DNA of 64,000 bases from an uncultured bacterium (GTDB lineage Bacteria > Acidobacteriota > Thermoanaerobaculia > Multivoradales > JAHZIX01): contig CBDUPA010000012.1 of assembly GCA_965368975.1 (NCBI GenBank), forward strand, positions 83,540-147,539, written 5' to 3'. How positions within the stretch are numbered: the first letter of the stretch is position 1; each line of letters starts with the position of its first letter. The position numbers and the translations under genes are program-made. The notes beneath the pieces were generated by a model. That model did not search any database. It worked only from the letters and a program-made list of their open reading frames with translations, and was not told where the DNA came from. Positions 3,564 through 53,094 of the stretch are shown piece after piece.

Positions 3564-3567
3564 CGTC

Positions 3568-34695: not shown

Positions 34696-34698
34696 ACG

Positions 34699-37638: not shown

Positions 37639-40362
37639 GTGGTCGTATGTCTCTTGGAGACAGTCGTTCGAAGAGCAGTGACAGCTGCTGCGATTCTGAC
37701 GCTTGTCGTGGGACTGGGCTTACAGGCACAGTCAGGGTCTGCTAACGCCCCGAAAGGGGCCCAGTTTGTCTTCGTGATCGATGATTCTGGCAGCATGGGG
37801 CAGCCGGAACACGGGCTTACAGACCCCGATCGGCTGGCTGTGTTCGCGGTGCGTGCTCTACTGGGTGTGCTCGACGACCGGGACTGGGCGACAGTTGTTC
37901 GTCTCAATGGCCCTCGCGAGGGTGAAGATCCGCTATCGCTGGCGCCTTTGGGAGATGCGCACCGAACCCGGCTGATGGAGGTTCTGCAGCTGGACGCGGA
38001 ACTGGCGCGATATGAGGGGGAGTACACGCCTTGCCGAAGGGCTCTACAGGCCGTCAAGCGGATGCTCGAAGGGTCGGATAGGCAGAACATTTCCCAAGTC
38101 GTGATCTTCCTTTCGGATGGCAAGTGCACACCGGTAACGCAAGGGGAAGATCGTGTCCTTGACTTTGCTGAAGGTTTGCGCTCGGCTCAGGGAGAGAATC
38201 CGCGCCTTCAGTTCTACTTTCTGCGATTCGAAGGGCAAGAGTACACTCCGGGGCTGGAGCAGCTGGCCGAGAACACCGGAGGTTCGGCGATCGAGGTCCG
38301 ACAGGGGGATCCGACGCGGATCCTCTACACCTTTGCGCAAGCGCTGGCCCGCTCGCAGGGCTACGAACCTCTGATCCTCAGTCCGAGCGTGCGGCAGCTG
38401 CCGGCCTACCGGGGGGCCAACCGAGTCCGCTTGCTGGCAATTGCGCGCGGCGATCAGGGAGAGCCGTTGGCGGTGCGCGTCCGGCGTCGTCAAGGGGGCG
38501 GAGTCGATACGGTGCCGATCGAGCAGGGCACCCACAGATTCCCGGGGCAACAGGGGTATCGCTTCGCTTCGGTGCAGTATCGGCCGGTCGAGCAGCCGGT
38601 GGAGGTGGAGGTGGTCGGAGCCGGCGAGGATTGGGAGGTCGTTGCCTTGCCGGAATATCACCTGGCGGTCAACCTGGCCTTGCGTCGTGGTGGCTGTGAG
38701 GAGGAAGGCGAGACCCTGGGTGGCGTCACGCCAGCCGGAAGCGGATTGTGTGCGGTGATCGAGCTAGTCAATGAGGAAGGGCGCGTGGTGGGCAAGGAGG
38801 TGACCACCGGGCAGTTACAGGCTTCCTTGCGTCAGACAGTCCCGGGTGGTTCCGAGCCTCGGCTGATTTCGGCAACGGAAGCTTCCTCGGATCTCGCCAG
38901 CTTCCGCTTGGATATACAAGGGCTCGAGAGCGGTCACCACGAGTTTCAGGGGCAGGTCCAGTTGGGGACCCAGGTTGACGATCCCCGAGTTCTGACGGGC
39001 ACTGCGCGAACACTGCAAGCAGTAGATCTGGCGATCCGGCCGGTTCCGAGTGAGCTGCGACTCGATCCAATCCAGCCCGGTGAGGTCAGCCGTCAGAGCC
39101 TGGAGATCCATGGCAACTTCGCGCCGTCGGAAGCCGTGGTCTCCTTGGAAGAGGGAGAGAATCTGCCGAGCTGCGTGACCTTAAGCTTTGACGGCAAGGA
39201 GCTTGGAGAGACCATCTCGATTCGTCCAAAGCAGGGCTACTGGGTCGAATTTCGGGCGGCCAAAGCCTGCGGCGAGACGCAAGGTCGACAGGTCGATGCG
39301 CGCCTGCGCCTGGAGCTTGCGGGACTCGATTCGATTGCCATACCGGTAACCTTTCGCTTGGAGAACAACGCCCAACGCCGAGATCCGACAACAGTGGAAT
39401 TGCGGGCAGGTACGACGAGAGAGGTCGATGTAGCAATCCCCGCGGCCTGGAATTCTTTCGACGTACAAGCAACCGCCGCCGAGAATGCGCAGGGCGAAAC
39501 CTATGAGTTGCTGCGCGCTGAGATTCTGAGCGAGCCTCCGATTCCCTCTGAAGACGGTGAAGCCTCAGGTCGCCAGCGAGTCGAGGGATTGACCGCTGAA
39601 CAGGGACTGTCTCTGCAACTCGTAGCTTCGGGCTGTTGCAGGTCCGGGACCTACGCCCTCGATGTCTACCTGTGGCCCAAGGTCGGTGCCACGACCATCG
39701 TACCGCTGGTCGTCGAAGTCGAGGCCAGCTGGTGGACCTGCTACGGCTCTTGGGTGCTCGCGGGGACCATCGGTCTCTTGGCTGGCTTGCTGGTGTTCTA
39801 TGTCCTGAGCATGTTCAGTCATACCACCTTGCTCGACCGAGACCAGCTGAGCGCTCGTCTAGTGCCCTTACGCTGGCCTCGCCATCGCGGCGCACCGCAA
39901 CCCGCCAGCAATCGCAGTAGTGACCGAGAAGAGGTCGAAGACATTGTGCACAGTGAAGTCTCTAGCCTGCAGCGGGTGCGGAGCTGGCTACGAGCCAATC
40001 CCCTGGTCTTTGGCTCGCCTGGGCGAGAGTACAGAGAGACGGCCGAACTCTTTTTGACCACTGATCTCGGGCTAACCTCGATTTCCCTGGTATTGGAGCG
40101 GGATGTCGTCGACCGACTCCGGACGAGCGAGGAGATCGACACTTGGGAAGAGGGGAGGCTCTTCGCGCGCGCCGGCAATCCCGTCTCCTTCTTTGTCGTG
40201 CGCGGTCCGAGCAAGAAAGTTCAGCAGATGACTCCGGAAGGCTGGTTCGGCAAGGTCGATGACCTGACTGTCGAGCAGGTTTCCAAAGGACAAAGATTCA
40301 TTCGTCAGCTTTCCATCAAAGAGCGCAAAGAAGGCGCTGTGGCCGGGTGGGTTCTGGAATAG
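37639..40362 (+). CDS. von Willebrand factor A domain membrane protein (signal peptide, extracytoplasmic vWA, C-terminal TM helix and cytoplasmic tail)
   Basis: MIDAS motif FVFVIDDSGSMG; C-terminal TM WVLAGTIGLLAGLLVFYVL; GTG start. Confidence 0.7.
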   Translation: MVVCLLETVVRRAVTAAAILTLVVGLGLQAQSGSANAPKGAQFVFVIDDSGSMGQPEHGLTDPDRLAVFAVRALLGVLDDRDWATVVRLNGPREGEDPLSLAPLGDAHRTRLMEVLQLDAELARYEGEYTPCRRALQAVKRMLEGSDRQNISQVVIFLSDGKCTPVTQGEDRVLDFAEGLRSAQGENPRLQFYFLRFEGQEYTPGLEQLAENTGGSAIEVRQGDPTRILYTFAQALARSQGYEPLILSPSVRQLPAYRGANRVRLLAIARGDQGEPLAVRVRRRQGGGVDTVPIEQGTHRFPGQQGYRFASVQYRPVEQPVEVEVVGAGEDWEVVALPEYHLAVNLALRRGGCEEEGETLGGVTPAGSGLCAVIELVNEEGRVVGKEVTTGQLQASLRQTVPGGSEPRLISATEASSDLASFRLDIQGLESGHHEFQGQVQLGTQVDDPRVLTGTARTLQAVDLAIRPVPSELRLDPIQPGEVSRQSLEIHGNFAPSEAVVSLEEGENLPSCVTLSFDGKELGETISIRPKQGYWVEFRAAKACGETQGRQVDARLRLELAGLDSIAIPVTFRLENNAQRRDPTTVELRAGTTREVDVAIPAAWNSFDVQATAAENAQGETYELLRAEILSEPPIPSEDGEASGRQRVEGLTAEQGLSLQLVASGCCRSGTYALDVYLWPKVGATTIVPLVVEVEASWWTCYGSWVLAGTIGLLAGLLVFYVLSMFSHTTLLDRDQLSARLVPLRWPRHRGAPQPASNRSSDREEVEDIVHSEVSSLQRVRSWLRANPLVFGSPGREYRETAELFLTTDLGLTSISLVLERDVVDRLRTSEEIDTWEEGRLFARAGNPVSFFVVRGPSKKVQQMTPEGWFGKVDDLTVEQVSKGQRFIRQLSIKERKEGAVAGWVLE

Positions 40363-40408
40363 AGCTCGAGGCCGGTCCGAAAACAAAAGCAAAATTGCGA
40401 GGTTGAAC

Positions 40409-43400
40409 ATGGCCAGAGATCGTAAGTTGATCGTCGAAGAACTCCTGACCAAGCCCAGCGGCGTGTGTCCGATGCTGTTCGTTGGTATGGGAGGAGCGGG
40501 TTGCAGGATGGTGGAGCGGATCGCCGGTCATCTCCGAGGTCGACCGGATTATAAAGAACGCTTCAAAGATCTGGTCAAGTTCGCCATGATCGACAGCAAT
40601 GTCAATGATCTGGAAGGGTATCGAGAAGTGGCCAATGCAACCTTCCTGATCAGTGACTTCGAGAAGGAGGAGTACGCCAATCTGGCCTCTGGCAAGAAGT
40701 TCCTGGAACCGCAGCAGTACTTTACACAGTGGGTGCCGTCGGACTATCGCTTCCGCTCCGGAGATACCTCGGGGGCTGGCCAGATTCGCATCGAATCTCG
40801 TCTGGGTGTTTACTACCAGATGAAGCACAAACAATTCGTGCCCAGATTCCGCAGTCTCTTGGAGAGTCTGAAGTCGCACGAGAACGGACATCGGAGGTTG
40901 GACTCCGACGAGATCCGGATCGTACTCTGCTATTCCGTCGCCGGCGGAACCGGCTCCGGTTGTCATCTGCCAGTGGCCTATATGTTGCGGGATCAGGCCG
41001 ACGACCTGGGCAAGCCGACTTTGATCGGTGTTGCGGTGTTGCCGGCGGTCTTCGAGGACAAGGTCGGCGTCAATAAGGATGGTGTTTTTGCCAACGGTTA
41101 TGCAGCTCTGAAGGAAACCGAGCATTTGATGAAGCTCGGTGCCCCGGATTCTCGGTTCTTTCCCGAGAAGGGGATCGAGTTTCACTACAACCCCGCCGAT
41201 GAATCGAAGCGAACGGTTCACGCGCGTCCCTTCGACTTCCTTTATCTGATCGACAAACCCGAGTCGTTCAGCGTTCCCGAGCCGGTGGATGCTGCGGCGG
41301 ACGGACTCTATCTGCAGTTCTTCTCGCCCCTCTACGGGGCCCAGCTCTCCGACTACGACAACTACACGCAGTACCAGAGGTTCTTGGTACCGGAAGACTT
41401 CGAAGAGGGAGGCATTCCGGGCTTCTCGACCTTCTATGGCTCCTACGGTTGCGCAGTGCTCCTGGTGCCGGTTCCCGGCCTGGTGGAGTATTGCAGCCAG
41501 GCTGCCGCCCTGGCGTTGATTCGGGCCAGCTTCATGGGGGATATCCCAGCGGATCCGATGTACGAGCCCTTGCGCATCGACAGCGACCGCTTCTATGAAG
41601 TCAAGGAGCGCGACGACGAGGATGCGCAGCTCTTCCAGGCTGCGGATATCCCCAGTCAGCCTCAGAAAGAGCGTCGCCGAAGGTTGTTCGATCGGCTTTT
41701 TGCCAAGCGGGTGCGCCTGCTGGCGGCGTGTGAGTACCGGGCTGACCGCGACGGCCGGTTCCGCGGCATCTTCCGGCACGGCCACTATCTCGGAACCATC
41801 CCGAAGCTCGACGGTAGCGCCGTCATGGACATGGAGCGGTTCGACGAAGAGGCCGAGCGCGAGCGCGAGCTGGTCGGTGGCAAGCTCAGCGTTTCGATCG
41901 GCGGCATCATCCTGCCCGCCTTGGTCGGACTGCCGGGGGACGACCCCGGACTCCTGCAACGGGCGCACCAAGCGATCAAGAACTTCAAGGTCGACAAGCC
42001 GCGTCGTGACATGCGGGTCAACGAACTACGAGCGCGCGGCGACGCGTGGCGGACGATGTTGAGGGATGAGGGGCGTCAACGCCTGCGCGATGGCTACAGC
42101 GATGGCACGGTGCAGGTGCCTGGCATGGAGAGCCTGGTGCAAATGGACTTCCTGCGCCGGGAGGCGGGAGAGGTCGAGCTGGCGGCCAAGCGCTACGCGG
42201 TGCTCTCTCTGCTCGACGCGGTGGATTGGGAACAAGCGCCGGAAGACGAGGCCGAGTCCAACTTCGATGTCCAGGAGAAGAAGCCCACGGCCAAGGCCGA
42301 CGATGCCTTGATCGAGCACGTAATCAACCAGGCTCGGGATCTGGCCTTCCGCGACATCCGCCGCGAGTTCCTGTCCCAATTGGGCGAGTTGCGCGAGGCG
42401 CTGGAGAGCATCGCCGACGAGATGCGGGAGCTGGAGCAGGGGTCGACCAACCTGGAGCGCGAGTACGGTCGTCGCCTGGAGCGCCTGCAGTTCCAGGGCG
42501 AGGAGTCGGCCAATCAGTACATCCTGGACGCCGAGGCGTTGCAAGGGGAAGACAATCGACGCTTCTGGGACTTCTACTTCGAGGACAAAATCGCAGCTCT
42601 GCCCGAGTTGTCGCTGAGCAATGCTCGCGTGCAACAAATCCTGAGTGACACCGTCATCGAGCTATCGCAGCGTACGGGCCGCAGCACGAGCACGTCACGC
42701 CTGGAGAAACTGTTCACCGCGTTGCGCAAGTATGCCCAGGACTTCCTCGACAAGCGGATCGGCGGTGATCGTCACTCACCGGACCTGGAACGTCGCGAAG
42801 GGTTGACGCTGTCGGATGCGCTGGAGCTGGAGATCACCTACCGAGCGCTCTATCGCAGCTACGCCGAAGCGATCCAGGGGCAGGGGGACAAGGTCATTCG
42901 TCGCATTCTCTCCGAATACCGCGCCCTGCCCGACGAGAAGCAGATCGATTTCGCGGAGCCCAAGCACCAGGACTATCTGCGCGACAAGATCAAGCGGGTA
43001 GTGCAGGAGAAGGCATCCCTGCTCTGTGTCTACAACCACTCACGCGATCAGCATGGTGGCGTGCGGCCAAACCATATCTTCCTGGCCGCGATTGATGAGA
43101 ACTTCAAGAACAGCAACATCGAACAGGCGCTGAAAGATGCCGACATCGATGATCTCAAGTGGGTGTCCGGCAGCTGGCACAACGCCAAAGAGATCGTCTT
43201 CTACCGCGCGGTGTTGAATGTTCCGCTTTACACCTTCGGTCGGCTCGACCAGATGAAGCACCACTATGAAAGCTTCCGCAGTCTGAGGCGGCGCTCGAAG
43301 GTGCTGCACATCGACAAGAACTGGGAGGGTGACCAGCTCTGTGACCTGGATCCGGGCACGCTCAAAGAAGTGCATCGTCAACTAACCGTGCGCGACCAGA

Positions 43401-44278
43401 TCATCAACTTCACCTCGCTGCTGAGCAGCAAGCATCCGCGCATCGATGAGAAGGGGGCTACCTGCATCTTGCGTCGGCGCGGGCGCTACTATCTGCTGGA
43501 TCCGACCCTCAGCAAGATACCCGATGAGCACGATCCTGGTTCGACCTTGTTGGGCGACGCCCTGGCCCGAGCCATCGAACGCTTGCCCGAGGTGCTCGAT
43601 GCCGAGCGCGTGAACTTCAGCGAGTACCGGGATTCGCTGCACGGTGTACGCAATGGCATGGCCCCGTGGCTGCTGGGCAAGATCTGCAGGTTACCTTTCC
43701 AGTGGCGCCTGCAATACGAAGATTTGAGCAACCACTATGGGCATCAGCGTTCGATCGAGCAGCAAGAGATTCTGCGTGATCTGAAAAACTCCTACGAGAA
43801 GCTCAATGAAGCGCTGGACTCTCTGCTCGCGGAACTGCGCAATCGTCGACTCGAGAGTCGGACCCGCAAGGAGGACTTCACGGTCTACGCTCGCCGCTTG
43901 ACCGCCCAGCAGGCCAAGGATGCACTGGATCAGAGCATCAAGGTGCTGGCCAACTACAGCGAGGCCTGGAGCAAGGTCGAGGACAGCTCGCAGGTCCCGG
44001 ATACCCCCGAGTCGTTCGTGGATCTCTTCCAGCCTCTGGACCATGGCAAGTTGCAGAGCATGCTCGACAAGTTGCACAAGCCGATCCTTGATGACGATGA
44101 TGACGATGAGGAAGGCGATGGCCCCGGCCCAGCCAAGCCCCCAGCGGAGCCGGTCAAGCGCCCAGCGGAGCCAGACAAGCCCTCAGCGGAGCCAGACAAA
44201 GACTCGGCGGAGCCAGACGAAGACTCTGCCACTGAAGAGCCTTCGGAACCAGATCCCACTGAAACCGAAGGGTCATGA
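40409..44278 (+). CDS. tubulin/FtsZ-superfamily GTPase with about 800-aa coiled-coil and acidic-repeat C-terminal extension
   Basis: G-box MLFVGMGGAGCRMV; tubulin signature SVAGGTGSGCHLPV; ATG 40409 with GAGG RBS (ORF-track TTG 40403 also possible). Confidence 0.75.
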   Translation: MARDRKLIVEELLTKPSGVCPMLFVGMGGAGCRMVERIAGHLRGRPDYKERFKDLVKFAMIDSNVNDLEGYREVANATFLISDFEKEEYANLASGKKFLEPQQYFTQWVPSDYRFRSGDTSGAGQIRIESRLGVYYQMKHKQFVPRFRSLLESLKSHENGHRRLDSDEIRIVLCYSVAGGTGSGCHLPVAYMLRDQADDLGKPTLIGVAVLPAVFEDKVGVNKDGVFANGYAALKETEHLMKLGAPDSRFFPEKGIEFHYNPADESKRTVHARPFDFLYLIDKPESFSVPEPVDAAADGLYLQFFSPLYGAQLSDYDNYTQYQRFLVPEDFEEGGIPGFSTFYGSYGCAVLLVPVPGLVEYCSQAAALALIRASFMGDIPADPMYEPLRIDSDRFYEVKERDDEDAQLFQAADIPSQPQKERRRRLFDRLFAKRVRLLAACEYRADRDGRFRGIFRHGHYLGTIPKLDGSAVMDMERFDEEAERERELVGGKLSVSIGGIILPALVGLPGDDPGLLQRAHQAIKNFKVDKPRRDMRVNELRARGDAWRTMLRDEGRQRLRDGYSDGTVQVPGMESLVQMDFLRREAGEVELAAKRYAVLSLLDAVDWEQAPEDEAESNFDVQEKKPTAKADDALIEHVINQARDLAFRDIRREFLSQLGELREALESIADEMRELEQGSTNLEREYGRRLERLQFQGEESANQYILDAEALQGEDNRRFWDFYFEDKIAALPELSLSNARVQQILSDTVIELSQRTGRSTSTSRLEKLFTALRKYAQDFLDKRIGGDRHSPDLERREGLTLSDALELEITYRALYRSYAEAIQGQGDKVIRRILSEYRALPDEKQIDFAEPKHQDYLRDKIKRVVQEKASLLCVYNHSRDQHGGVRPNHIFLAAIDENFKNSNIEQALKDADIDDLKWVSGSWHNAKEIVFYRAVLNVPLYTFGRLDQMKHHYESFRSLRRRSKVLHIDKNWEGDQLCDLDPGTLKEVHRQLTVRDQIINFTSLLSSKHPRIDEKGATCILRRRGRYYLLDPTLSKIPDEHDPGSTLLGDALARAIERLPEVLDAERVNFSEYRDSLHGVRNGMAPWLLGKICRLPFQWRLQYEDLSNHYGHQRSIEQQEILRDLKNSYEKLNEALDSLLAELRNRRLESRTRKEDFTVYARRLTAQQAKDALDQSIKVLANYSEAWSKVEDSSQVPDTPESFVDLFQPLDHGKLQSMLDKLHKPILDDDDDDEEGDGPGPAKPPAEPVKRPAEPDKPSAEPDKDSAEPDEDSATEEPSEPDPTETEGS
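44138..44226 (+). repeat. four tandem 21-nt coding repeats (PAEPVKR/PAEPDKP/SAEPDKD/SAEPDED) at the C-terminus of the FtsZ-like protein
   Basis: cc(c/t)cagcggagcc(g/a)g(t/a)caa(g/a) units repeated head-to-tail. Confidence 0.5.
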
Positions 44279-47200
44279 CCAACCTGGTGTATCCGGCTCC
44301 GGGTATCGTTGTGGGCGTTGGCCGCTTTGGGCTGGCGGTCCTCGAAAAGCTCGGCGAGGATTGGCAACAGCTGAAGCTATCGGGGGCCGGGCCGTCGTGC
44401 GAGAACCTACGCCTGTTTTGGGTCCATCCAGAGCAGGACGACGAGGGCTGTTGGCGGGAAATCGAGCTGCCCGAGCTGAACACCGCCAATTACAGTGAAG
44501 ATGGCGACTGGCCGTCGATCGTGCTCGACTTCGTGCTCTTGCGCACCATGGGATTGATCCGCTATCGCCATGGCATCTACCAGGTGGCTTCGCCGCGCGA
44601 TTGCGGCCCGGTGCGAACGGCCGATCTCGAGTATCCGGAGACCAAAGACAAAGAAGATCCTGAAGCAGAAGAAGCCAAGAAGGATCGCGAAGAAGATAAG
44701 CGACTGGTGCGCCGCCGCTTCTTCGACTGGCTCGACCTGGCTCCCGACCCCGTCGAGGCCGCGGAGCGACTGAAGAAGAAGGCCGAGCGTGAGCCGGTAT
44801 TGCACCTCTTCATCTCTCCCTTGCTGCACCGGGTGCGGCAGGGCCACAGCCCGTGGATCTTGATGGCTGCGATCCTGCGCTGTAGTTGCTTGCGCGCCGG
44901 TCGAGACCCTTCGCCGTGGCGCTGGGTTCGCGAACAGGAGGCGCAAGGCAAGATCGACCAGGAGGCCATCCAGACGGTATGCGAGGACCGTGACAGGTTT
45001 CTCGACCGTTTCGCGCCAGCACCCCTGAAGCCCTCACCACAGCCCGAGGTCGATGAGGGGGAAGTCGAGGGGAGAAAGACGGACGTCTGGAAGTTCGAAG
45101 AGACGGAGATCGTCATTCCCAAGATCTTTCGGCCCCAGGAGGGAGATCCGGAGCCGCCGATCGATACCTTTCACCTGCTGCGTGAGAACTGGCAGGTATC
45201 CGGCTGGGCGACCGATCTCGAGACGCAGAAACAGCAGGGTTTCAAACCGCTGCAGGTGAGCCATTTCCGCCTGGGTCTTTTTGACCACTGTCAACACCGG
45301 GAGTCGAGAGAGCCCGAGTTGACAAAGGCCTTCGAGAAGCGACTCAAGTGCACGTCCAGGCTCTTGCATCGGGGGCTGGTTCGGTTGTGGGTCGATCTCA
45401 AGCGCGAGCAGGTAGAAGAGCAGGCTCTCGCCACCGGTGAGCGCCGCCATCGCCTGCTCGATGAAGCACTACAGCAAAGCTTGAAGATCCTGGAGAAGTT
45501 GGTCGTGGATCCGCTGAAGGACGCTCCCGGCAAGGAGAAAGAGGGCGAGTGCTTGAGCGATCTCTTGCGCTGTCCGGTCGACTTGCCGGACCAGCCGACC
45601 CAGTTTCTGCGCAACCAGTGCTTCGATCCTGACTCGCGGTGGTTGCGGGACAGCGCCTTGGAACGACGCCTGGTAGCTCTCGGGCTGGGAGACCCGTGGC
45701 GCGCCGCGCCGCGACGGCGGGGATTGTTCCAGGAGGTGATCCTCGAGAAGCAAGCCGAGGGCGGCTGCGCTCCAGGCGAGAGCGATGATCGCCCCCGATG
45801 CACGGAGATCGCCAAAGAGCCCAAGTCCGCTGGCGAAGGCCGGGGTCGATTCCGCAAGCAGCTGAACCAGACGGTCCGAGAGTTGTTGGACTTTTCCTAC
45901 CTGGGAAGGTACCGCGAGCGCTTGACTCGCACACCGCCACGTCTGACGGTCTTTGTCGTCGGTGACATGAGCGAGCCCTTTACGCGCATCAAGATGCAGC
46001 AAGTCCTCAAGGACGTTCACTCGGAACTGCTGCGGGCCTTCAGCTCCGTGTTCGAACTGAACCGGGATGGCTTCGATCGTGCCTTGTCCGTCATGCCGAT
46101 TCTCTGGATGCCGCATCCGGCGGATCCGTTCGGTGGTGAGGAGCCACTGAAGACACGCCTGGAGGAGGCGGTGATCATCGATGCGGTGCACGGTATTCGA
46201 CGCTGGGTCGAGGCGGTGTTACCCGGTGCGCGGCGCCGGATCTCGCAGATTTTCATCAACAGCAGGGTCACGGACAACGCGGTCTTGAGCATGGACGACA
46301 GCGTCAACCAGACGCGCGACTTCCTATCCTTCCAACTGCGCAATGACCTATCGCGCGATGACTGGCTGCGTCGGACCGCGGTGGGTCCGGGGGGCGACGA
46401 CTACTTCGCCTCGTTCGCCTGCTGCGAGATCGAGTTCCCGGCGGAGAGGGCGCGCGAATACCTGGCCAATCGCATCGCTCGCGACTGCTTGCGTCAGCTG
46501 CAGGTGGAAGCTGAATGGCGGGGGCGCGAGGCGGTCAAGGTACCCGATCCCTCATCCATGGAAGAGCTGGTCGGAGAGGCGAGTTCGCGTCTGCAGCAGG
46601 AGACGGAAAGGGAGGCGAAGGGTCTGACGGACGCCATCTGGAATGCCCTGCCGCAGGGCGAGAGCTCCCGGCGCTGCATGCCGCGCAAGGAGATCCTGAG
46701 CCACTTCTCGGAGCGTTTCGAAAGCCGACTGTGGGCGGACATCACGCGACTGTGGCGACAGCTGACCCAGCGTCGAGGTCACATGGATGACTTTGTCGAT
46801 TCCTTGCGACACCAGATCTCCCGGCAGCTGCATGGTGCGCTGCCCGACATCCGGCGTCAGAGTGACGACGAGGTGTACCAGGCCAGTGGGCAAGGTATCC
46901 AGGCGGCACTCTCGCGCCTGCAGGAACGCCGCTGGCAAGCCTTCAAGCAGCTGCAGGAGGCGGAGGAAGAACGTCTCCAGGCCGAGGAGGCCTGCCAGCA
47001 GAATCAGCGGCCGAACCGTGGCAGGCTGTCGCGGGCCCGTCTGGCAGTCACGGAGGCAGCGAAAGCCAAGCCGGATTGTGGTCCGCAGCGCTTCGGTCTT
47101 CTCGCCTGGGGCCTGTTGGCTCCGATCACCGCGGTGTTGCCCGCTCGTTTGTTGGAGTCCGAACTGGGCTGGTGGGCGTTGCCTTTGGTGATTGTTTTGC

Positions 47201-48330
47201 TGATCGTATTGGCGGGTGTCTCGCTCTGGGCCTTGACGCGCCATCGGTATCGTCAGCTGCAGGCCGCGATCGAGACGATGGCATCGGCCGTTCATCGCAT
47301 GGTGTCCGGCGGCAGTGACTCTAGCCTGGTGGCGGCCGGGGCGTCCTTGCGTTCCTTCCTGGAGACCCGCCTGCGCCTGACCGCGGCGCTGGCCCGGCGC
47401 GGCTTTTCGCTCCACGTATTCGAGCAAGCGGCGGTGGATGAAGCTCTGGGTCTGCGCTTGCGCGAGAGCGTCGACATCCAGCTGCACAAGATGATGCGCC
47501 GAGCCGAGAGCCTCAAGGTACGTCCCGGCGGAGCCAGTGGCAACGAGCGCGATGATCTGCGAGATCTCTTTGTGCGGCGCGCCGGAGAACGCGTCGAGAA
47601 GCTGATCGATCCCGACCACCTGCTCGAGTACTACCACACCCGCGTGCGTCCGGACGACGTACCGGTGCAGGAGTTCATCGAGCAGGTCGGTGGTCTCCAA
47701 GATTGGCGCCGAACCGCGTGCCTGTCCGATTCCACGGCGGTCATGGCATGGGGACAGGAACTCTTCACTACCCTGGTCGACAAACCGATCACGGAACTCG
47801 ACTACTTCACCGAGGCGGTGGGGGAGCAGTTGCGGCGATTCGTCCTGCGCAATTACTCGAATATCGGTTTCGGGGCCAAGTTCCTGGGCTACGAAGGGCT
47901 GGATCCGGATGGCATCCGCCTGGTCGCCGATGCTTCCCTGGTGGCCGACCAGGCCTTGCTGCATGCCTATGCCTGGGCCGTGGAGCAGCAGGAAGACCAT
48001 GCCCGTCGCAACCGTGAGGTGAGTCGCGCGGCGCGCACGCTGGAGACGATCGCGGCCAAGGTCCGACCCAATGCCGCCTACATGCTCTCCTTGGTCCAGG
48101 GCGTGCGAGCCCACAGCGTACACAACCTGAAGCGCTTCGAGTCGTTCCATGATCGACCCGAGGGTCCGGACTCGGACGCGATCCACTACCTGACGGGCTA
48201 TGAAGAGAAAGCCAAAGAGTTTTACCAGTGGATCAGCGCCGAGGATGCCGCGCCGCGCGCACGGCAGGACGAAAATACTACGACTGCCAGCTCTGGGGAG
48301 ATAGAAGATCATGGACCCGACGTGGATTGA
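44275..48330 (+). CDS. 1351-aa protein with N-terminal FtsZ-like G-box remnant, long helical region and two C-terminal TM helices
   Basis: ATGA overlap with the FtsZ-like gene; N-terminus PGIVVGVGRFGLAVLEKL; TM pair LLAWGLLAPITAVLP / WALPLVIVLLIVLAGVSLWAL. Confidence 0.55.
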   Translation: MTNLVYPAPGIVVGVGRFGLAVLEKLGEDWQQLKLSGAGPSCENLRLFWVHPEQDDEGCWREIELPELNTANYSEDGDWPSIVLDFVLLRTMGLIRYRHGIYQVASPRDCGPVRTADLEYPETKDKEDPEAEEAKKDREEDKRLVRRRFFDWLDLAPDPVEAAERLKKKAEREPVLHLFISPLLHRVRQGHSPWILMAAILRCSCLRAGRDPSPWRWVREQEAQGKIDQEAIQTVCEDRDRFLDRFAPAPLKPSPQPEVDEGEVEGRKTDVWKFEETEIVIPKIFRPQEGDPEPPIDTFHLLRENWQVSGWATDLETQKQQGFKPLQVSHFRLGLFDHCQHRESREPELTKAFEKRLKCTSRLLHRGLVRLWVDLKREQVEEQALATGERRHRLLDEALQQSLKILEKLVVDPLKDAPGKEKEGECLSDLLRCPVDLPDQPTQFLRNQCFDPDSRWLRDSALERRLVALGLGDPWRAAPRRRGLFQEVILEKQAEGGCAPGESDDRPRCTEIAKEPKSAGEGRGRFRKQLNQTVRELLDFSYLGRYRERLTRTPPRLTVFVVGDMSEPFTRIKMQQVLKDVHSELLRAFSSVFELNRDGFDRALSVMPILWMPHPADPFGGEEPLKTRLEEAVIIDAVHGIRRWVEAVLPGARRRISQIFINSRVTDNAVLSMDDSVNQTRDFLSFQLRNDLSRDDWLRRTAVGPGGDDYFASFACCEIEFPAERAREYLANRIARDCLRQLQVEAEWRGREAVKVPDPSSMEELVGEASSRLQQETEREAKGLTDAIWNALPQGESSRRCMPRKEILSHFSERFESRLWADITRLWRQLTQRRGHMDDFVDSLRHQISRQLHGALPDIRRQSDDEVYQASGQGIQAALSRLQERRWQAFKQLQEAEEERLQAEEACQQNQRPNRGRLSRARLAVTEAAKAKPDCGPQRFGLLAWGLLAPITAVLPARLLESELGWWALPLVIVLLIVLAGVSLWALTRHRYRQLQAAIETMASAVHRMVSGGSDSSLVAAGASLRSFLETRLRLTAALARRGFSLHVFEQAAVDEALGLRLRESVDIQLHKMMRRAESLKVRPGGASGNERDDLRDLFVRRAGERVEKLIDPDHLLEYYHTRVRPDDVPVQEFIEQVGGLQDWRRTACLSDSTAVMAWGQELFTTLVDKPITELDYFTEAVGEQLRRFVLRNYSNIGFGAKFLGYEGLDPDGIRLVADASLVADQALLHAYAWAVEQQEDHARRNREVSRAARTLETIAAKVRPNAAYMLSLVQGVRAHSVHNLKRFESFHDRPEGPDSDAIHYLTGYEEKAKEFYQWISAEDAAPRARQDENTTTASSGEIEDHGPDVD

Positions 48331-51300
48331 TGTTGCCTGGCAGGTGATCTGGCAGGCCATTGCCGGCGTCTTGGTCTGGCTCGATAGCCAGTCGCTCTAT
48401 GTGATCCTCGGCTGTGTGGGCGGCCTGCTGAGCTTTGTCTATGGTTTGGCATATGGCCTGCAATGGCGGCTCGTCAAGTTTCTCGAGCCGCGACCGGAAC
48501 AGACAGCGCCGCTGGGACGTTGGGAGGCCATGTCTTCCCTCTTGGCACCGGTGACGGTCGTATTCTTCGTGCTGGAGGGCATCACCCGCTCGCTGCATCG
48601 CCGGGTGCGAGGTTCGAAGGAACCAGACTGGAAGGTCAAGCACTCGAGTTCCGCCAAGAACCATGGCAAGCCGATCTTGATCGCGACCTTGGGGCCGACC
48701 TTTCTGCTCGCCGGTGTCTTCACTGCTGTGGTCTACTGGTTGGCCCGTCTCGGCGAGCCTCTGTTCGCCGAAGCGTTCTCTCATGCGGGTCCATATCCTT
48801 TCTGGGAGTCCAAGCTGCTCAGTGCCTTGTTGGTCCTCGAAGCTCCGCCAGACATCTTCCCGTTGGCGAGCCATCCCAAGGTATCGCTGGTCCTGAGCTT
48901 GCTCTTCTGGACAGCTCTCTGGTGGACGTGCGGCAATCTGCTGCGAGGCTTCGTCTATCGAACCGACTTGCAGCGCAACCTGGCGGGCCGCCGCGATACA
49001 GCCTTGCCGCTGTGGACCTCCTGGTTCGGGGTCAAGAAGCTGACCGAGGCCGGTGAGGCCTACCGGGGTTGGGCCGCCTGGCTGGTGACGGCGGTCATCC
49101 TGCTGACCGTCGGTGCTGGCATGACGCTGAACCCGGCTCCCGGCTCTACCACTGCCGGTGTTGTTGATGGCCTGGAGCCAGCAGTCCAGGTTTCGCCGTC
49201 CGCGCTCGCCGTCGCCTTGATCCTCGCCTTGTCTTGGGTGCTGCACCTGCACCTCAAAGGCAAGCATTTTGAGCCGGAGCCCAAGTCCCGAAGGGAAGCG
49301 ATCGTGCCGTCGGAAGGCCTGCCGGGATGGCAGCGTGTCGTGGCCAAGTTGGAGGAACGGTATCGCCTGACGCCGCCGGAGTTTCGCGGCGAGCGACCGT
49401 TGCTGGCCCCCGCGTTCACCGTACCTACAACGGCTCTCCAGGTGCTCTCGCCCCTGGTTCCTGAACTCCTGCAGGAGCCGGAGCAGAGTCCGGAAATCCG
49501 GCAGACACCGCCGCTGAACGTGATGCAGGCGAAGGTGCTCGAAAGTCTTTCGCTGTTTGGCTATGTCCACCTGCAGCCCCCCACCACCGGCGATGTCCTG
49601 GAACTTTCGAGTAGTGGTCCAGGAGCGGTCGAGGACCGTAGTGGGTTATCTGAGCGCCACCAGATCGTGCTGGCCCCCGAGGGCAGTGGCAAGACGACTC
49701 TGGCCATACTCGCCGCCGCCAACAATACCCTCGTGCATGCCCGAGCGACGCTGCTGATCACGCGGTCGGGGGAACAAGCGGACGAACTCCAGCTCAAGTT
49801 CCAGGAGGTCGTCGAGCCCTCCACGGTGCGCTGGAACCTGCGGTTTCGCCGCATGGGCCAAGACTTCGCGTCAGACCTCAGTCGCGACATCGTGCCCGAC
49901 ATCGTGATCTCGAGCCTGCACGAACTCACCACCGGCATGCTCGACAACGCGGAGGTCTATGCCGACTTCCTGCGCAACGTCGGGCTCGTGGTAGTGGACG
50001 ATGTAGAGTCCTTCGCCGGAGCCGTCGAGATTCACGCCCAGCTGGCCTTCCGCCGTCTCCGCCTGCTCTTCCGGCAAGTTTCCGAGGTCGAACAGCTCGG
50101 TGAGGCCAACGCACCGTTGATGCTGATCCTGGGCGTCGATTCGATGAAAGAAATGGCTGCCTGGGCCAAGAGTCTGTGCGGTGTCCAGGCCGTGGTGCGG
50201 AACTTTCCCGCCGCCATGGCGGAGACCGACCAGTCGAAAGACAGCGCATCAGAGGGCAGTCCATCAGGGGACAGGTCATCAGGGGACAGTACATCAGGGG
50301 ATAGAGCCTCCGAGGAGGGCGCGCGACAGCAGAAATGGCTTCCGTTCAGCGCCCTGCAAAGCCACCAGGGGCGGCAACTGACCGTGCCGGAGGTCGTCGC
50401 CGCCTGTGAAGCCGCTGGCGTGCCCTGGTGCTATCGACCCTGCGGTGACGGTCGTCGGCATCGAGGCCGTGGTCCGCTACTCCTGGAGCAGGAGCCCGAG
50501 CACGCCACGGCATCGCCACGGGATGCCTGTGTGATCTTCTTGGATGGTCGATGGAGCGAGGTACGCAGAGAGCTGCAGCGGAGTCCGTGGGCCGGGTACC
50601 AATCGAGACGGCAAGAGGTCATCTTCCTCGTCCTGGTCGATCCCGAGGAGGCGCTGGCCTGCGGCGAACTCGACCCGGACCTGGGTTTCGAGGCCTCGCA
50701 CGATCACGTGCGTCCAGACTTGGCGGAGGAACTCGTGACCTTGCCGCTGCCGGTCGTGCGCCCGCCATCGAGCCACGTCTTGCAGTCTCACCTGCTCTCC
50801 GATCTCGTGCAGAGTTGGTTCGAAGTCAAGGACCTGGTGGATACCTTCGAAGTCCCCGTGGCGCATCGTCTACGCTATTTGCAGTCGCAGGGCATGTTGC
50901 TGATGGAGGAGCGAAGCGACGTCCAGGCCGCACTGAAGGAGTACGAAGCCAAAGTTTACGTACGTGCCCTTGCAGCCTCCCTGGCCATCGACGAGGCCGG
51001 AGGCAGCGCCAACGACGGCATCATCGAGTATCCGCCCCTGGACAAGGTGCGACAAGTCGAGCTGGTGGCCAGGTCGGCGGTGACGATCCGCAATCGAGCC
51101 GATCACACGCTGCTGCGCACGGTCGAGGCCGATAGCGCGGCCTGGATCTACTACCCGGGGCGCATCTTCGAGGACTCTCGCGGCCGCTTCGTCGTGGTCG
51201 GCCGAGTCCGTCGAGGAGATCGACTGGGTGCCATCGAGGTCGAGCCCGTATTGCACGACAACTTTTCCAGTCCACGGCGTTGGTTCGAGCGCATCGAGCC

Positions 51301-52258
51301 GGAGACCTCGAGCCGAGAGAAACTCTCCGTCGCCGCCGACTCCGACTCGTCGGCGCACTGCGAGGCGCACGGCTATGCTCTGTATGAAAAGGAACCGGTT
51401 CTGCTGGGGCGGCACAGCATCGAACTCGGCCTGGTCGCGATCGAACTGAAGCTACATTCGTTGGCGGTCTTCCGACTCGACAGGTCGACCTTCGAGGTGC
51501 GCGCGCGGGAGATTCACGCGCAGCGAGCGCAGAGCGAGTTTCCGCCGGCAGAACTGCAGACAATCGCGGTCTCGTTGCACCCCAATCCCCAGGAATCGAG
51601 CCCATCTGCTCCGAAGCTGCACCTGGCGGCAGCGCGCTTGCTCACCGCGCTGTTGCGCTTTGTGCTGCCGCTGATCTATCGCAACGTCCAGGATCGCTTG
51701 GAGGTCGCGTTGATCTTCCCGGGGGAGGACGGCGACAAGAGGTTCACAGCACCGTGGGATTCGGAGCTGGAGTCCGAGGCGGCCCTCTACCTCTTCGACC
51801 TGCACCAGGGGGGAGATGGCACTGCGCGGGCTCTGTACCGGGATGGCGTCGAGCTACCGCTGCGCTTCTGCCGACACTTCCTGGCCACGGACGTGGACGT
51901 GGAGCGGATCTTCCGGCTCCATGGGCACGAGAGTAGCTTGCAGGAGGTCAAGGTAACCCATGGAGGTCCCGAGGCGGTTGGGAACGATGCTGAGCCAGAG
52001 GACGAGATACTGGAAGCGTGGCCTTGGCAAGAGATCCGTGCTGGGTTGCTGGCCTGGTTGGATAGTCGTCTTCATCCGGAGTCCGTCTCCTGGGCCGAGG
52101 CCGAAGCGTCGGCTGCTGAGGAGGTTACGGAGGATACTGAACTAGAGGCAGAAGACCTGGAGGCAAGTGCCCCGGGCGATCACGCACAGACCGCTGAAAG
52201 TTCCACCGTCGAAGAAGCCACCGCCGAAGAGTCCACTGCTGAGACGGAAGAGGCTTGA
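48311..52258 (+). CDS. 1315-aa polytopic membrane protein (about 7 TM) fused to an SF2-helicase-like P-loop ATPase and an acidic C-terminus
   Basis: N-terminal TM helices; Walker A LAPEGSGKTT; Walker B VVVDDVESF; 20-nt overlap with the upstream gene. Confidence 0.55.
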   Translation: MDPTWIDVAWQVIWQAIAGVLVWLDSQSLYVILGCVGGLLSFVYGLAYGLQWRLVKFLEPRPEQTAPLGRWEAMSSLLAPVTVVFFVLEGITRSLHRRVRGSKEPDWKVKHSSSAKNHGKPILIATLGPTFLLAGVFTAVVYWLARLGEPLFAEAFSHAGPYPFWESKLLSALLVLEAPPDIFPLASHPKVSLVLSLLFWTALWWTCGNLLRGFVYRTDLQRNLAGRRDTALPLWTSWFGVKKLTEAGEAYRGWAAWLVTAVILLTVGAGMTLNPAPGSTTAGVVDGLEPAVQVSPSALAVALILALSWVLHLHLKGKHFEPEPKSRREAIVPSEGLPGWQRVVAKLEERYRLTPPEFRGERPLLAPAFTVPTTALQVLSPLVPELLQEPEQSPEIRQTPPLNVMQAKVLESLSLFGYVHLQPPTTGDVLELSSSGPGAVEDRSGLSERHQIVLAPEGSGKTTLAILAAANNTLVHARATLLITRSGEQADELQLKFQEVVEPSTVRWNLRFRRMGQDFASDLSRDIVPDIVISSLHELTTGMLDNAEVYADFLRNVGLVVVDDVESFAGAVEIHAQLAFRRLRLLFRQVSEVEQLGEANAPLMLILGVDSMKEMAAWAKSLCGVQAVVRNFPAAMAETDQSKDSASEGSPSGDRSSGDSTSGDRASEEGARQQKWLPFSALQSHQGRQLTVPEVVAACEAAGVPWCYRPCGDGRRHRGRGPLLLEQEPEHATASPRDACVIFLDGRWSEVRRELQRSPWAGYQSRRQEVIFLVLVDPEEALACGELDPDLGFEASHDHVRPDLAEELVTLPLPVVRPPSSHVLQSHLLSDLVQSWFEVKDLVDTFEVPVAHRLRYLQSQGMLLMEERSDVQAALKEYEAKVYVRALAASLAIDEAGGSANDGIIEYPPLDKVRQVELVARSAVTIRNRADHTLLRTVEADSAAWIYYPGRIFEDSRGRFVVVGRVRRGDRLGAIEVEPVLHDNFSSPRRWFERIEPETSSREKLSVAADSDSSAHCEAHGYALYEKEPVLLGRHSIELGLVAIELKLHSLAVFRLDRSTFEVRAREIHAQRAQSEFPPAELQTIAVSLHPNPQESSPSAPKLHLAAARLLTALLRFVLPLIYRNVQDRLEVALIFPGEDGDKRFTAPWDSELESEAALYLFDLHQGGDGTARALYRDGVELPLRFCRHFLATDVDVERIFRLHGHESSLQEVKVTHGGPEAVGNDAEPEDEILEAWPWQEIRAGLLAWLDSRLHPESVSWAEAEASAAEEVTEDTELEAEDLEASAPGDHAQTAESSTVEEATAEESTAETEEA

Positions 52259-52262
52259 AGAG

Positions 52263-53084
52263 TCAAGAATGCGGACGCAAGTGGAACTCGTTCAAAGAGT
52301 AGTTCGCAATCGGAACCTCGAGGTAATCGTTTTCGTACAAGTGTTTGCGTAGGAGTCTTGAGAGTGCTTCTGGCGAGTCGATGTTGATCTTCTCCAAGAC
52401 AGCGACGAGCATTACATTCCTTTGTTCCCGTGTTTTATCGGCACCTTTTCTTGAGCAGTCGGGATCCTTAAAGCGCCCGAGGTTTACGGAATACAGTTTC
52501 CTGCCGCCAGACAGGTCGGCAATGGTGCGTACCCAAGAGATCAGCTGGTCCGCTCTGGAGCGCGCGCGCTCTTCTTCCAGATGGTGGATGGCCGCGATCT
52601 CACAGGAGGCCATGCCAATGGCAATAATGTCGGTGGCCTGTTCAACACTCGCTTGTAGTCCGGTAGAATTCAGGAACGCAAAGACATCTGCTTCTTTATT
52701 TCCAGCATTCATGATGACATCAGCCCGCCCGATGGGCCAGTAGTGTTCGCGGTCCAGAATGGCGATGTCCATCCAAACTTCCTCACCATTGGGGCCGTTC
52801 GCCTGGACGCGTCTTGTGTCCGTTCCCTCAGTAGGAAGATGTCCTGGTTCAAAACAAGGAGAGGGACAGGGACGTGGAAGCTCAGGGCCGTCGATATCGG
52901 GAGGATCATCGCTGCCAACATCGTTATCTAGAAGATCATTGATAACCACTGGAGGGTCTTGGGGTCCGGCTGCAAACTGGCTGCTGTACTTTTCTAGGTA
53001 AGGCTCGACTGTTACAGACAGGACCAGTGAGAAGAAGGCGCTTACAGAGGCCCATAATAGATCCTTCTTTGTAAAGAAACTCAT
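52263..53084 (-). CDS. hypothetical membrane-anchored protein in a lower-GC islet
   Basis: N-terminal TM/signal LLWASVSAFFSLVLSVTV; local GC visibly lower (~50%) than the flanks. Confidence 0.35.
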   Translation of the reverse strand: MSFFTKKDLLWASVSAFFSLVLSVTVEPYLEKYSSQFAAGPQDPPVVINDLLDNDVGSDDPPDIDGPELPRPCPSPCFEPGHLPTEGTDTRRVQANGPNGEEVWMDIAILDREHYWPIGRADVIMNAGNKEADVFAFLNSTGLQASVEQATDIIAIGMASCEIAAIHHLEEERARSRADQLISWVRTIADLSGGRKLYSVNLGRFKDPDCSRKGADKTREQRNVMLVAVLEKINIDSPEALSRLLRKHLYENDYLEVPIANYSLNEFHLRPHS

Positions 53085-53094
53085 TATCTGATTC

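Follow-up and report, generated by a model that had tools for sequence, protein, structure and literature searches.

A rare, conserved operon of the bacterial tubulin relative FtsZl1 with a putative degenerate tubulin-fold partner and a membrane-embedded DEAD-like ATPase

What four large co-directional genes of an uncultured Thermoanaerobaculia bacterium encode, and what their products may do together, is the question raised by positions 37639-52258 (forward strand) of the 64,000-nucleotide stretch of DNA analysed here (the window; contig CBDUPA010000012.1). The four ORFs, designated P1 to P4 and found where a sequence-only reading had placed them, form a single operon: P1 and P2 are spaced by 46 nt, and the stop/start overlaps claimed for the downstream genes are present, with 4 nt (ATGA) between P2 and P3 and 20 nt between P3 and P4. 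The operon is rare and strongly conserved, and its core is FtsZl1, a bacterial tubulin relative already known as a family. Operons combining vWA and FtsZl1 genes have been described, and predicted to be a membrane-remodelling system, by Makarova and Koonin (2010; PMC2875224), the comparative genomics to which the earlier reading referred. New relative to those operons are the putative degenerate membrane-anchored tubulin-fold neighbour P3 and the membrane-embedded ATPase P4. Coordinates are listed in Table 1.

Table 1. Features of the operon and the adjacent genes (window positions).
Feature	Position	Strand	Basis
P1, exported/periplasmic vWA protein, 907 aa	37639..40362	+	Pfam, hydropathy, alignment of 32 homologues
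P1 vWA domain, residues 44-215	37768..38283	+	Pfam VWA_2 E=1.4e-5, VWA E=1.1e-3
P1 MIDAS motif D48-D-S50-G-S52 (DDSGS)	37780..37794	+	Translation; conservation in 32 homologues
P1 transmembrane helix, residues 706-724	39754..39810	+	Kyte-Doolittle mean 2.23, 19 residues
P2, FtsZl1/Pfam Tubulin_2 protein, cytoplasmic, 1289 aa from ATG 40409 (1291 aa from 40403)	40409..44278	+	PF13809
P2 Tubulin_2 domain, residues 25-373 (numbering from 40403)	40475..41521	+	PF13809 E=8.8e-41, profile positions 1-355 of 356
P2 T1/G-box GMGGAGCRMV, residues 28-37	40484..40513	+	Translation, family alignment
P2 T4 tubulin signature GGTGSG, residues 181-186	40943..40960	+	Translation, family alignment
P3, putative cryptic degenerate tubulin-fold paralogue, 1351 aa, anchored via TM hairpin	44275..48330	+	
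P3 first strand-helix-strand, T1-like GVGRFG, residues 8-52	44296..44430	+	Aligns to P2 T1 loop
P3 insertion of ~470 aa inside tubulin-like domain, residues 53-519	44431..45831	+	Confidently modelled
P3 tubulin-like core, second half, residues 520-760	45832..46554	+	Sole P3 part matching compact relatives
P3 TM hairpin, residues 942-960 and 969-987	47098..47235	+	Hydropathy
P4, polytopic membrane protein fused to DEAD-like P-loop ATPase, 1315 aa	48311..52258	+	
P4 Walker A GSGKT, residues 458-462	49682..49696	+	G458, G460 invariant; K461, T463 at least 90% conserved
P4 Walker B/motif II DDVE, residues 563-566	49997..50008	+	D563 invariant; D564, V565, E566 at least 90% conserved
w303, 273 aa from Met31 of 303-aa ORF	52263..53084	-	Convergent with P4, 4 nt stop-to-stop
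s184, 184 aa, adjacent to w303	53095..53649	-	41% identity to neighbour of w303 homologue in L054

P1 is predicted to consist of a hydrophobic N-terminal leader, the vWA domain, a variable Cys-containing periplasmic region, one transmembrane helix and a conserved cytoplasmic tail of about 180 aa. The VWA_2 match of the single sequence is a weak assignment (26.1 bits, slightly below the 27-bit cut-off). Across 32 aligned homologues the MIDAS motif and the downstream T and D are all at least 90% conserved, and the vWA domain and the tail are better conserved than the middle region.

The test set in advance for P2 was alignment of its N-domain to the tubulin/FtsZ fold, and a significant match to the Tubulin_2 profile was obtained over practically its whole length. 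The two GTP-binding motifs pointed out earlier, G-box and tubulin signature, are intact and invariant or nearly so across 33-40 homologues; the family as a whole shows little or no variation in the T1, T3-like (GDTSGAGQIR), T4 and T5-like (PAVFED) segments. The best PDB matches of the AlphaFold model are FtsZ, CetZ and tubulins (Foldseek E~3e-4, probability 1.0), for a model of moderate quality (pLDDT 65) in which the expected T7-loop region is poorly predicted. The GTPase domain is followed by a long conserved helical/globular region that includes short coiled-coil segments, and then by an acidic Pro-rich tail. The claim of about 800 aa of coiled coil was overstated: a crude heptad scan gave only about 107 residues (646-677, 1112-1152 and 1163-1196), and the C-terminal 800 aa hold invariant Gly/Pro/aromatic motifs of the kind usually seen in globular domains. 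Homologues number 468, and the best 120 of these 468 have 51-80% identity across about 95% of the length. Since no experimental study of any FtsZl1 family member was found in the literature searched, GTP hydrolysis, polymerisation and a membrane effect of P2 are assumptions.

P3, which has no Pfam family, is probably another protein of the tubulin fold, a degenerate paralogue anchored in the membrane and without the glycine-rich GTP signature. In its T1-like segment G14, G16 and G19 are invariant (40-51 homologues), and at the T4 position VVGDMSEPFTR is found in place of GGTGSG. Compact relatives of about 820-870 aa lack the large insertion and also have a TM segment, near residues 485-520. 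The best structural matches of P3 include BtubA, AtubB2 and alpha-tubulin; Foldseek did not confirm the tubulin fold, and there is a minor chance that P3 is a generic Rossmann-like (dinucleotide-binding) protein and no tubulin relative. The paired-tubulin reading would then be wrong, and the locus would amount to a usual vWA-FtsZl1 operon whose membrane partners are specific to the lineage.

P4 corresponds well to the 7-TM protein fused to a Walker A/B SF2-like ATPase described from the sequence: hydropathy gives 7-8 hydrophobic/TM segments in residues 1-320, and the DEAD domain (residues 446-583; E=2.7e-7) scores 30.9 bits, above the Pfam cut-off of 26. A conserved middle region follows, and then a degenerate MZB/DUF1998-like end (residues ~1113-1211), which matches the MZB domain of a neighbouring DruE-like protein (hhalign E=0.0014). 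Among 27 P4 family members DEAD was matched in all and MZB weakly in five, while Helicase_C, the second RecA-like domain, was found in none. Similarity to TIGR03817, a "helicase/secretion neighbourhood" DEAH helicase, is weak (E=0.0043, far below cut-off).

The order vWA-FtsZl1-pseudotubulin-ATPase is found in 29 of 50 related genome loci, carried by Thermoanaerobaculia, Bradymonadales and Myxococcota, with Persicimonas caeni, Lujinxingia and Bradymonas among the cultured carriers; because the order is identical in so many loci, the arrangement is far beyond chance, and the synteny and vWA co-occurrence on which the earlier reading depended extend to dozens of genomes. A distant clade has the P2-P3-P4 triad in compact form. 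In most genomes a fifth gene, encoding a lipoprotein, accompanies the operon; it is missing from the window copy, which therefore may be not fully functional.

In heterodimeric tubulins (alpha/beta-tubulin, BtubA/BtubB and Asgard AtubA/B), both partners bind GTP and retain the signature motif. P2 and P3 resemble these as adjacent paralogous tubulin-fold proteins, although P3 lacks the signature and has the insertion and TM hairpin, and its pairing with P2 is what we infer. FtsA, ZipA and SepF, membrane partners that hold a soluble tubulin-family polymer, would be functional analogues only; their folds are unrelated to FtsZ, whereas the proposed tether P3 would itself be a tubulin-fold paralogue. 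P4 shares a DEAD-type RecA1 domain, Walker A/B motifs and a weak MZB-like end with a D..GG.G core with MrfA, DISARM DrmA/DrmB and Druantia DruE (DEAD/DEAH with C-terminal MZB/DUF1998). It differs from them in its polytopic N-terminal membrane domain, the undetected Helicase_C and the absence of the four-cysteine cluster, and PADLOC matched it to none of these families.

Compared with the FtsZl1 operons of PMC2875224, P2 is a clear member (FtsZ-like N-domain with GGTGSG, long helical/coiled-coil region, alpha-helical C-terminal domain), and a vWA gene with intact MIDAS directly upstream and several membrane-associated partners are likewise shared. The window operon has neither the diverged P-loop GTPase nor the kinase, and adds P3 and a TM-DEAD ATPase, a helicase-like partner being absent from the neighbourhood tables of that paper. 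In the available parts of the paper and its tables, Thermoanaerobaculia and Bradymonadales carriers do not appear, and the sole myxobacterial entry, Plesiocystis, has another neighbourhood. Related systems have been reinterpreted as conflict systems (Kaur, Burroughs, Iyer and Aravind, 2020; PMC7159879). The GAP1-N2-type DO-GTPase systems of that study also have tubulin-domain proteins fused to coiled-coil/alpha-helical regions, a membrane-bound vWA protein with extracellular vWA domain, two tubulin genes in Firmicute versions and a proposed near-membrane action. The window operon differs from them: neither the defining DO-GTPase/GAP1 pair nor an FNIII-repeat component was found in it, its second tubulin-fold protein is a degenerate one that is anchored in the membrane and escapes recognition by Pfam, and an SF2-type ATPase replaces the GTPase switch; the phyla are also different.

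We tentatively favour an envelope-spanning, nucleotide (GTP/ATP)-driven, membrane-bound assembly made from two tubulin-superfamily proteins, with a role in local membrane/envelope remodelling. P2 would be the GTP-binding subunit, and P3, a diverged paralogue fixed in the inner membrane by its hairpin, would pair with it and most likely tether or nucleate P2 oligomers/filaments at the cytoplasmic membrane face. P1 would expose its vWA domain, binding a ligand in a metal-dependent way, to the periplasm and its conserved tail to the cytoplasm, and could thereby couple an envelope-side interaction to the P2/P3 assembly. P4 may perform ATP-driven work at the membrane, either to remodel the assembly or to transport a substrate, and the lipoprotein and a small periplasmic protein would complete the envelope side in most genomes. 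The most likely role would be that proposed for FtsZl1 operons in 2010, namely local remodelling and not cell division.

A biological-conflict (anti-phage/anti-invader) system is a possible but rather unlikely alternative, in which the periplasmic vWA domain would sense an invader, the tubulin pair would form a threshold-setting NTP-dependent multimer as proposed by Kaur et al. (2020), and the membrane DEAD/MZB-like ATPase would attack incoming nucleic acid or harm the membrane (abortive infection). Related neighbourhoods of tubulin and vWA genes, of which some combine a pair of tubulin genes with a vWA protein outside the cell, were classed as conflict systems (PMC7159879), but the defining DO-GTPase and GAP1 are absent from the window, as is a variable effector. 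Defence helicases, among them the DruE-like protein encoded 4 kb away, typically combine DEAD with MZB/DUF1998, yet none of the module genes belongs to a known defence family in PADLOC. The patchy, phylum-crossing distribution (about 45 of 185,579 species representatives), the lower GC (60-63% against 67-69% in the flanks) and the adjoining DruE-like, UvrD/GajB-like and Type IIG genes are expected features of mobile conflict systems; however, defence genes adjoin the operon in only one of eight annotated loci, that of the window's genome, and the module was not found on viral contigs or plasmids. A ParE toxin/YD-shell cassette is inserted within the operon at one locus (L057), and a Meiothermus plasmid carries a classical vWA-FtsZl1 trio amid BREX/HEPN genes. 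One clade has a gene for a DpdF-like helicase downstream of the operon, but this lineage's gene and two kinases were the only PADLOC matches, among those listed, in 100 flanking ORFs of 30 loci (E<=1e-8; 25 families listed of 63 matched). The unusually high conservation of P2 also argues against conflict.

It is still less probable that the operon encodes a trans-envelope translocation machine, in which the polytopic domain of P4 would be the conduit, its SF2 motor would push DNA or protein as DEAD-like motors do in SecA/ComFA, and the tubulin pair, vWA protein and lipoprotein would be scaffold or outer parts. The direct fusion of a 7-8 TM domain with a DEAD-like P-loop domain whose Walker A/B motifs are intact is consistent with this, and the periplasmic vWA domain, lipoprotein and small periplasmic protein would put parts in every envelope layer, but channel, secretin, pilin or substrate genes were not recognised and the 27 P4 homologues lack a detectable Helicase_C. 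Two further links, the TIGR03817 similarity and a SEC-C-motif protein beside the FtsZl1 gene in one variant locus (L059), are each single and weak, and the reading is supported by analogy only.

Outside the four genes, w303 and s184 (52263-53649) belong to the conserved neighbourhood of the module; like the tubulin-like character of P3 and the missing fifth gene, they had escaped the earlier reading. The w303 product, probably periplasmic, has an N-terminal TM segment, a Pro-rich linker and a domain of about 170 aa bearing two invariant Cys, with no relatives found in Pfam or PDB. Its homologues adjoin the module at 14 loci; in the clade of the window they follow it on the minus strand, and in others they precede P1 on the plus strand, and an s184 homologue is present in L005 as well as L054.

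P2, the FtsZ-like protein of the module, adds a member to a family already described, and the module around it represents a new version of such loci, in which FtsZl1 is combined with a cryptic membrane protein (P3) of probably degenerate tubulin fold and with a putative membrane SF2-like ATPase (P4). A periplasmic vWA protein, P1 in the window, and a lipoprotein are usually added to this three-gene core.

Features of the module and its flanks in the window
Feature	Coordinates	Strand	Description
Dehydratase pair	33592-37464	+	Split LanB-type lanthipeptide/thiopeptide dehydratase genes directly 5' of P1: Lant_dehydr_C (367 aa), then Lant_dehydr_N (921 aa)
P1	37639-40362	+	907 aa; hydrophobic leader, vWA domain with MIDAS D48-x-S50-x-S52, variable Cys-containing stretch, transmembrane (TM) segment at residues 706-724, conserved tail of ~180 aa
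P2	40409-44278	+	FtsZl1 (Tubulin_2) protein, 1289 aa from ATG 40409
P3	44275-48330	+	1351-aa membrane protein, probably of degenerate tubulin fold
P4	48311-52258	+	TM segments and DEAD-like ATPase domain
w303	52263-53084	-	Convergent with P4; 52% GC; TM, Pro-rich linker, domain with two invariant Cys
s184	53095-53649	-	Convergent with P4; 48% GC
UvrD/GajB-like helicase	53802-55967	-	In defence-type row adjoining module
DruE-like protein	55964-62461	-	2165 aa; DEAD, Helicase_C, MZB and REase_MTES_1575 domains; PADLOC DruE models, E=3.6e-99
Type IIG restriction-methyltransferase-like protein	62458-63900	-	C-terminal part, E=3.9e-76; may run past window end

Four long ORFs, all co-directional, lie between 37639 and 52258. 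A gap of 46 nt with a GAGG-like site before the P2 ATG separates P1 from P2, and the following genes overlap (P2 and P3 share ATGA, P3 and P4 share 20 nt), as the sequence-only reading had described for the downstream partners. That reading had also placed a vWA partner with an intact MIDAS upstream of the FtsZ-like gene. The single-sequence Pfam score for this domain is borderline (VWA_2, E=1.4e-5); the MIDAS and the later Thr and Asp are conserved at 90% or more in 32 homologues, which bears the assignment out, and the vWA-FtsZl1 gene adjacency was found in at least 29 loci. Because the leader of P1 is followed by a single TM segment, the vWA domain should be outside, in the periplasm, and the conserved tail inside, in the cytoplasm. 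In one clade (L006:1599-3491, L034:1812-3460 and similar loci), an extra P1-like gene and a w303-like gene are located upstream of P1 on the same strand. The extra gene resembles the TM and cytoplasmic-tail part of P1 alone (residues ~646-866), and this suggests that the tail is an independent docking module.

P2 matched the Pfam family PF13809 (Tubulin_2) over profile positions 1-355 of 356, scoring 140.8 bits where the cut-off is 27 (E=8.8e-41). Both claimed GTP-binding motifs, GMGGAGCRMV and GGTGSG, are present exactly as stated; GMGGAG and GGTGSG are invariant or nearly so among 33-40 homologues, and the T1, T3-like (GDTSGAGQIR), T4 and T5-like (PAVFED) loops are likewise invariant or near-invariant across the family. 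An AlphaFold model of residues 1-490 alone (pLDDT 65) found its best PDB matches in FtsZ of Staphylococcus aureus, in CetZ and in tubulins, with ~291 columns aligned by Foldseek at E between 3e-4 and 3e-3 (prob 1.0) and modest TM-scores of 0.35-0.44. A PDB sequence search with the P2 profile returned nothing. The N-terminal domain thus aligns with the tubulin/FtsZ fold in both the whole-profile and the structural comparison. Since the model is FtsZ/tubulin-like and these loops are conserved, P2 should bind GTP. The length and domain order of P2 fit the FtsZl1 architecture, and the 800 aa of coiled coil attributed to it earlier proved overstated: a crude heptad scan gave ~107 residues, and invariant Gly, Pro and aromatic motifs occur in the region. 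In the literature searched, we found no experimental study of the FtsZl1 family and no report of GTP hydrolysis or polymerisation for any of its members.

The third protein has no Pfam family of its own; Tubulin_2 gave a weak partial match on its residues 664-739 (E=0.022). A word-indexed search collected 126 homologues, all of 1300-1450 aa except for a few partial ones, and an exhaustive phmmer search gave just 99 matches among 1.84 billion representatives. The latter also detected compact relatives (~820-870 aa), which lack the insertion and match residues 521-745 of P3 alone. The N-terminus of P3, YPAPxIVVGVGRFGLAVLE, resembles a T1 loop with invariant G14, G16 and G19. When full-length profiles of the P3 and P2 families were compared, only a meaningless 34-column match was obtained, and sub-region hhalign with the insertion still present was collinear and insignificant. 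With a core profile from which the insertion was taken out and to which the compact relatives were added, P3 aligned with the FtsZl1 N-terminal domain from end to end over 256 collinear columns (E=8.8e-5, prob 60%), pairing T1 with T1, RLTVFVVGDMSEP with IRIVLCYSVAGGTGSG, and PILWMPHPAD with VAVLPAVFED. The score was 40.9, against 16-24 for one reversed and 20 block-shuffled controls. P3 was also assigned to the tubulin/FtsZ fold. Because the profile alignment runs end to end and exceeds the controls, the best reading of P3 is as a diverged paralogue of FtsZl1 in which the glycine-rich nucleotide signature has been lost. GGTG(S/T)G is missing in P3, the aligned position being VVGDMSEPFTR in P3 and L/DxGE-type motifs in the compact relatives; with this signature lost, the protein is probably a degenerate, non-catalytic paralogue. 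The P3 model had no significant match in PDB by Foldseek. A TM hairpin at residues 942-987 is followed by a further cytoplasmic domain of 350 aa. A tubulin fold in a "hypothetical" family of 1351 aa that lacks a Pfam model is in itself a useful annotation result.

The first 320 residues of P4 contain 7-8 hydrophobic segments and are followed by a DEAD-type P-loop domain that exceeds the Pfam cut-off (PF00270, 30.9 bits against 26), so the fusion of a multi-TM protein with a Walker A/B SF2-like ATPase is as had been proposed. All 27 aligned homologues carry the DEAD match, with GSGKT and DDVE conserved. None of them matched Helicase_C (the second RecA-like domain, motifs IV-VI) at E<=0.01, and no helicase was found in PDB by the P4 profile search; we therefore call P4, on its sequence features, a polytopic-membrane SF2-like ATPase and not a helicase. 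The MZB domain (MrfA Zn-binding, DUF1998) was weakly matched by 5 of the 27 (best E=0.0014). The C-terminal YLFDLHxGGxGxARAL of P4 aligned, at the D..GG.G core, with the MZB domain that the adjacent DruE-like protein carries (hhalign E=0.0014); P4 lacks the four-Cys zinc cluster. NCBIfam gave nothing above noise for the module proteins.

Homologues of P2, 51-80% identical over ~95% of the length, were found in Acidobacteriota, Bradymonadales and Myxococcota. Carriers include Thermoanaerobaculia with Ca. Multivoradales (Acidobacteriota) and, in Bradymonadales, Persicimonas, Lujinxingia and Bradymonas, which are cultured, genetically approachable predators. A scan with the P3 profile of one genome per species in 185,579 species gave 50 loci, and all four genes recur in the same order and strand in 29 of them, which answers the question of synteny raised earlier; called-gene tables agree in seven loci. 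The remaining loci are mostly cut by contig ends, and two have insertions between genes. Protein lengths and gene content are constant across ~30 complete loci, and no variable effector domains were found between close relatives among them. Loci L061-L063, together with 12 metagenome loci collected with a 6-sequence alignment, also show the order FtsZl1, compact P3, TM-DEAD protein wherever the contig allows; a weak vWA match lies upstream of this triad in four of them. With the same order kept in the compact-P3 loci, the three-gene core is conserved in two deeply diverged clades.

Several variants were observed among the related loci. In L059, the FtsZl1 gene is closely preceded by the gene for a 657-aa SEC-C motif protein (2659-4632) and separated from the compact P3-like gene by one for an alkaline phosphatase, and there is no adjacent P4-like gene. 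A Bradymonadales-like chromosome has a ~6.8-kb cassette between the P2 and P3 homologues (L057:13738-20601, same place as in L040) with a ParE toxin, an antitoxin, a YD-shell fragment and small ORFs. Plasmids carry just distant FtsZl1 genes (24-27% identity). Meiothermus taiwanensis plasmid pMtWR-220 (L058:1-18371) has a distantly related trio of vWA, tubulin-like and hypothetical genes in a defence-island-like setting: it is bordered on one flank by helicase-related, DUF1156, Swt1-HEPN and ATP-binding genes, and on the opposite flank by brxL. The gene after the classical FtsZl1 on this plasmid was considered as P3-like and was left unsupported (E=0.25).

The PF13809 family is the FtsZl1 of Makarova & Koonin (2010; PMC2875224), where it was suggested to be the branch of the tubulin/FtsZ superfamily that has diverged most; Santana-Molina et al. 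(2023) equated Tubulin_2 with FtsZl1 and added no functional data. The 2010 work agrees with what the sequence-only reading said of FtsZ-like families beside vWA genes. Besides vWA genes with an intact MIDAS, its operons (PMC2875224) were described with a diverged GTPase, with kinases, with membrane proteins specific to a lineage and with OmpA-like proteins, the last as a peptidoglycan-binding partner in several genomes, and membrane remodelling is their predicted role. The window is like them in having an intact-MIDAS vWA gene adjoining the FtsZl1 gene. The diverged P-loop GTPase (Walker A/B and TxKD), frequent but not universal in those operons, is missing here: no GTPase family was found by Pfam or NCBIfam in P1-P4, w303, s184 or G5, and the sole P-loop domain is the DEAD-like one. 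A different setting was given by Kaur et al. (2020; PMC7159879), who placed tubulin and vWA neighbourhoods, some with two tubulin genes, within GAP1-N2 DO-GTPase conflict systems. Two incompatible readings of FtsZl1, membrane remodelling and conflict, are thus on record.

We favour, at a little short of an even chance, a membrane-bound, GTP/ATP-driven tubulin assembly that would act on the envelope; all of its functional steps are inferred. The observations made from the sequence alone were confirmed overall, and their interpretation is supported. A conflict system is appreciably less probable, and its case comes from the patchy distribution across phyla, the GC drop of the module (60-63%, against 67-69% on both flanks), the toxin cassette within the L057 operon and the classical vWA-FtsZl1 trio among BREX/HEPN genes on the Meiothermus plasmid. 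However, GAP1-N2 systems (PMC7159879) need one or two TRAFAC DO-GTPases and none was detected in the module or its conserved neighbours, gene composition is constant, and the module had no Pfam match at E<=1 to GAP1 (GAP1-N2, -M, -C) or the FNIII-repeat, in a Pfam set that may hold no GAP1 models. PADLOC also gave no convincing match, the best being E=3.8e-5 (LeoBC, to the coiled region of P3) and then 5.6e-4 with no system assembled, and w303 and G5 had no match. Neighbours are unremarkable in seven other annotated loci; 100 flanking ORFs from 30 loci gave, among the 25 PADLOC families with most matches out of 63, one lineage's DpdF-like gene and two kinases; and neither a copy of the module nor a P3 relative was found on viral contigs. 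That the module is a translocation machine seems improbable to us.

A more specific and rather doubtful proposal is that FtsZl1 and P3 form an obligate heteromer of one GTP-binding and one degenerate tubulin-fold subunit, which would be held in the inner membrane and acted on by the membrane-embedded SF2 ATPase. If true, this would be a previously unrecognised bacterial membrane-bound tubulin machine whose three-gene core is shared by two or more clades that diverged deeply, and an "active plus partner" tubulin pair would have evolved independently in bacteria. Such an active/inactive couple, bound directly to the membrane, would bear on the evolution of tubulin heterodimers and of membrane-bound cytoskeletal filaments. 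With its fixed three-gene core and no extra GTPase switch, the module is a cleaner handle than the systems described so far.

In complete loci, the near-universal fifth gene encodes a lipoprotein of 350-400 aa, with a start overlapping the P4 stop (e.g., L053:13930-15138, L002:21624-22673). No trace of it was found across the whole 64-kb window, where a convergent gene follows 4 nt after P4 (52258-52263). This gene, w303, has homologues beside the module in 14 loci and s184 in three (L004/L054, L005), with a short partial match in L053; their positions vary. Their GC contents are far under those of both module and flanks, and the module with w303 and s184 looks like a horizontally acquired block; no tRNA gene was found in the window as an integration landmark. 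No relatives of w303 were found in Pfam or PDB. Its motif pattern is like OmpA_C, a resemblance in motifs only, with hhalign E=0.57 for OmpA and 0.11 for Pal, using approximate probe sequences. A general defence-island location, considered from the adjacent DruE-like, GajB-like and Type IIG genes, was rejected, as this adjacency is specific to the window genome. In one Thermoanaerobaculia lineage, a 1350-aa Toprim-topoisomerase IA-RecQ-HRDC fusion is encoded convergently just after the operon (L055:15309-19367, L034:19788-23903, L012:19782-23858); the L055 protein is a full-length PADLOC DpdF match (E=0), with no other dpd genes in that stretch. In two Bradymonadales-type loci, a diadenylate cyclase (DAC) gene of 198 aa (L001:4552-5148, L057:5150-5746) precedes the vWA gene by ~1-2 kb, which could reflect lineage synteny or a link with c-di-AMP signalling.
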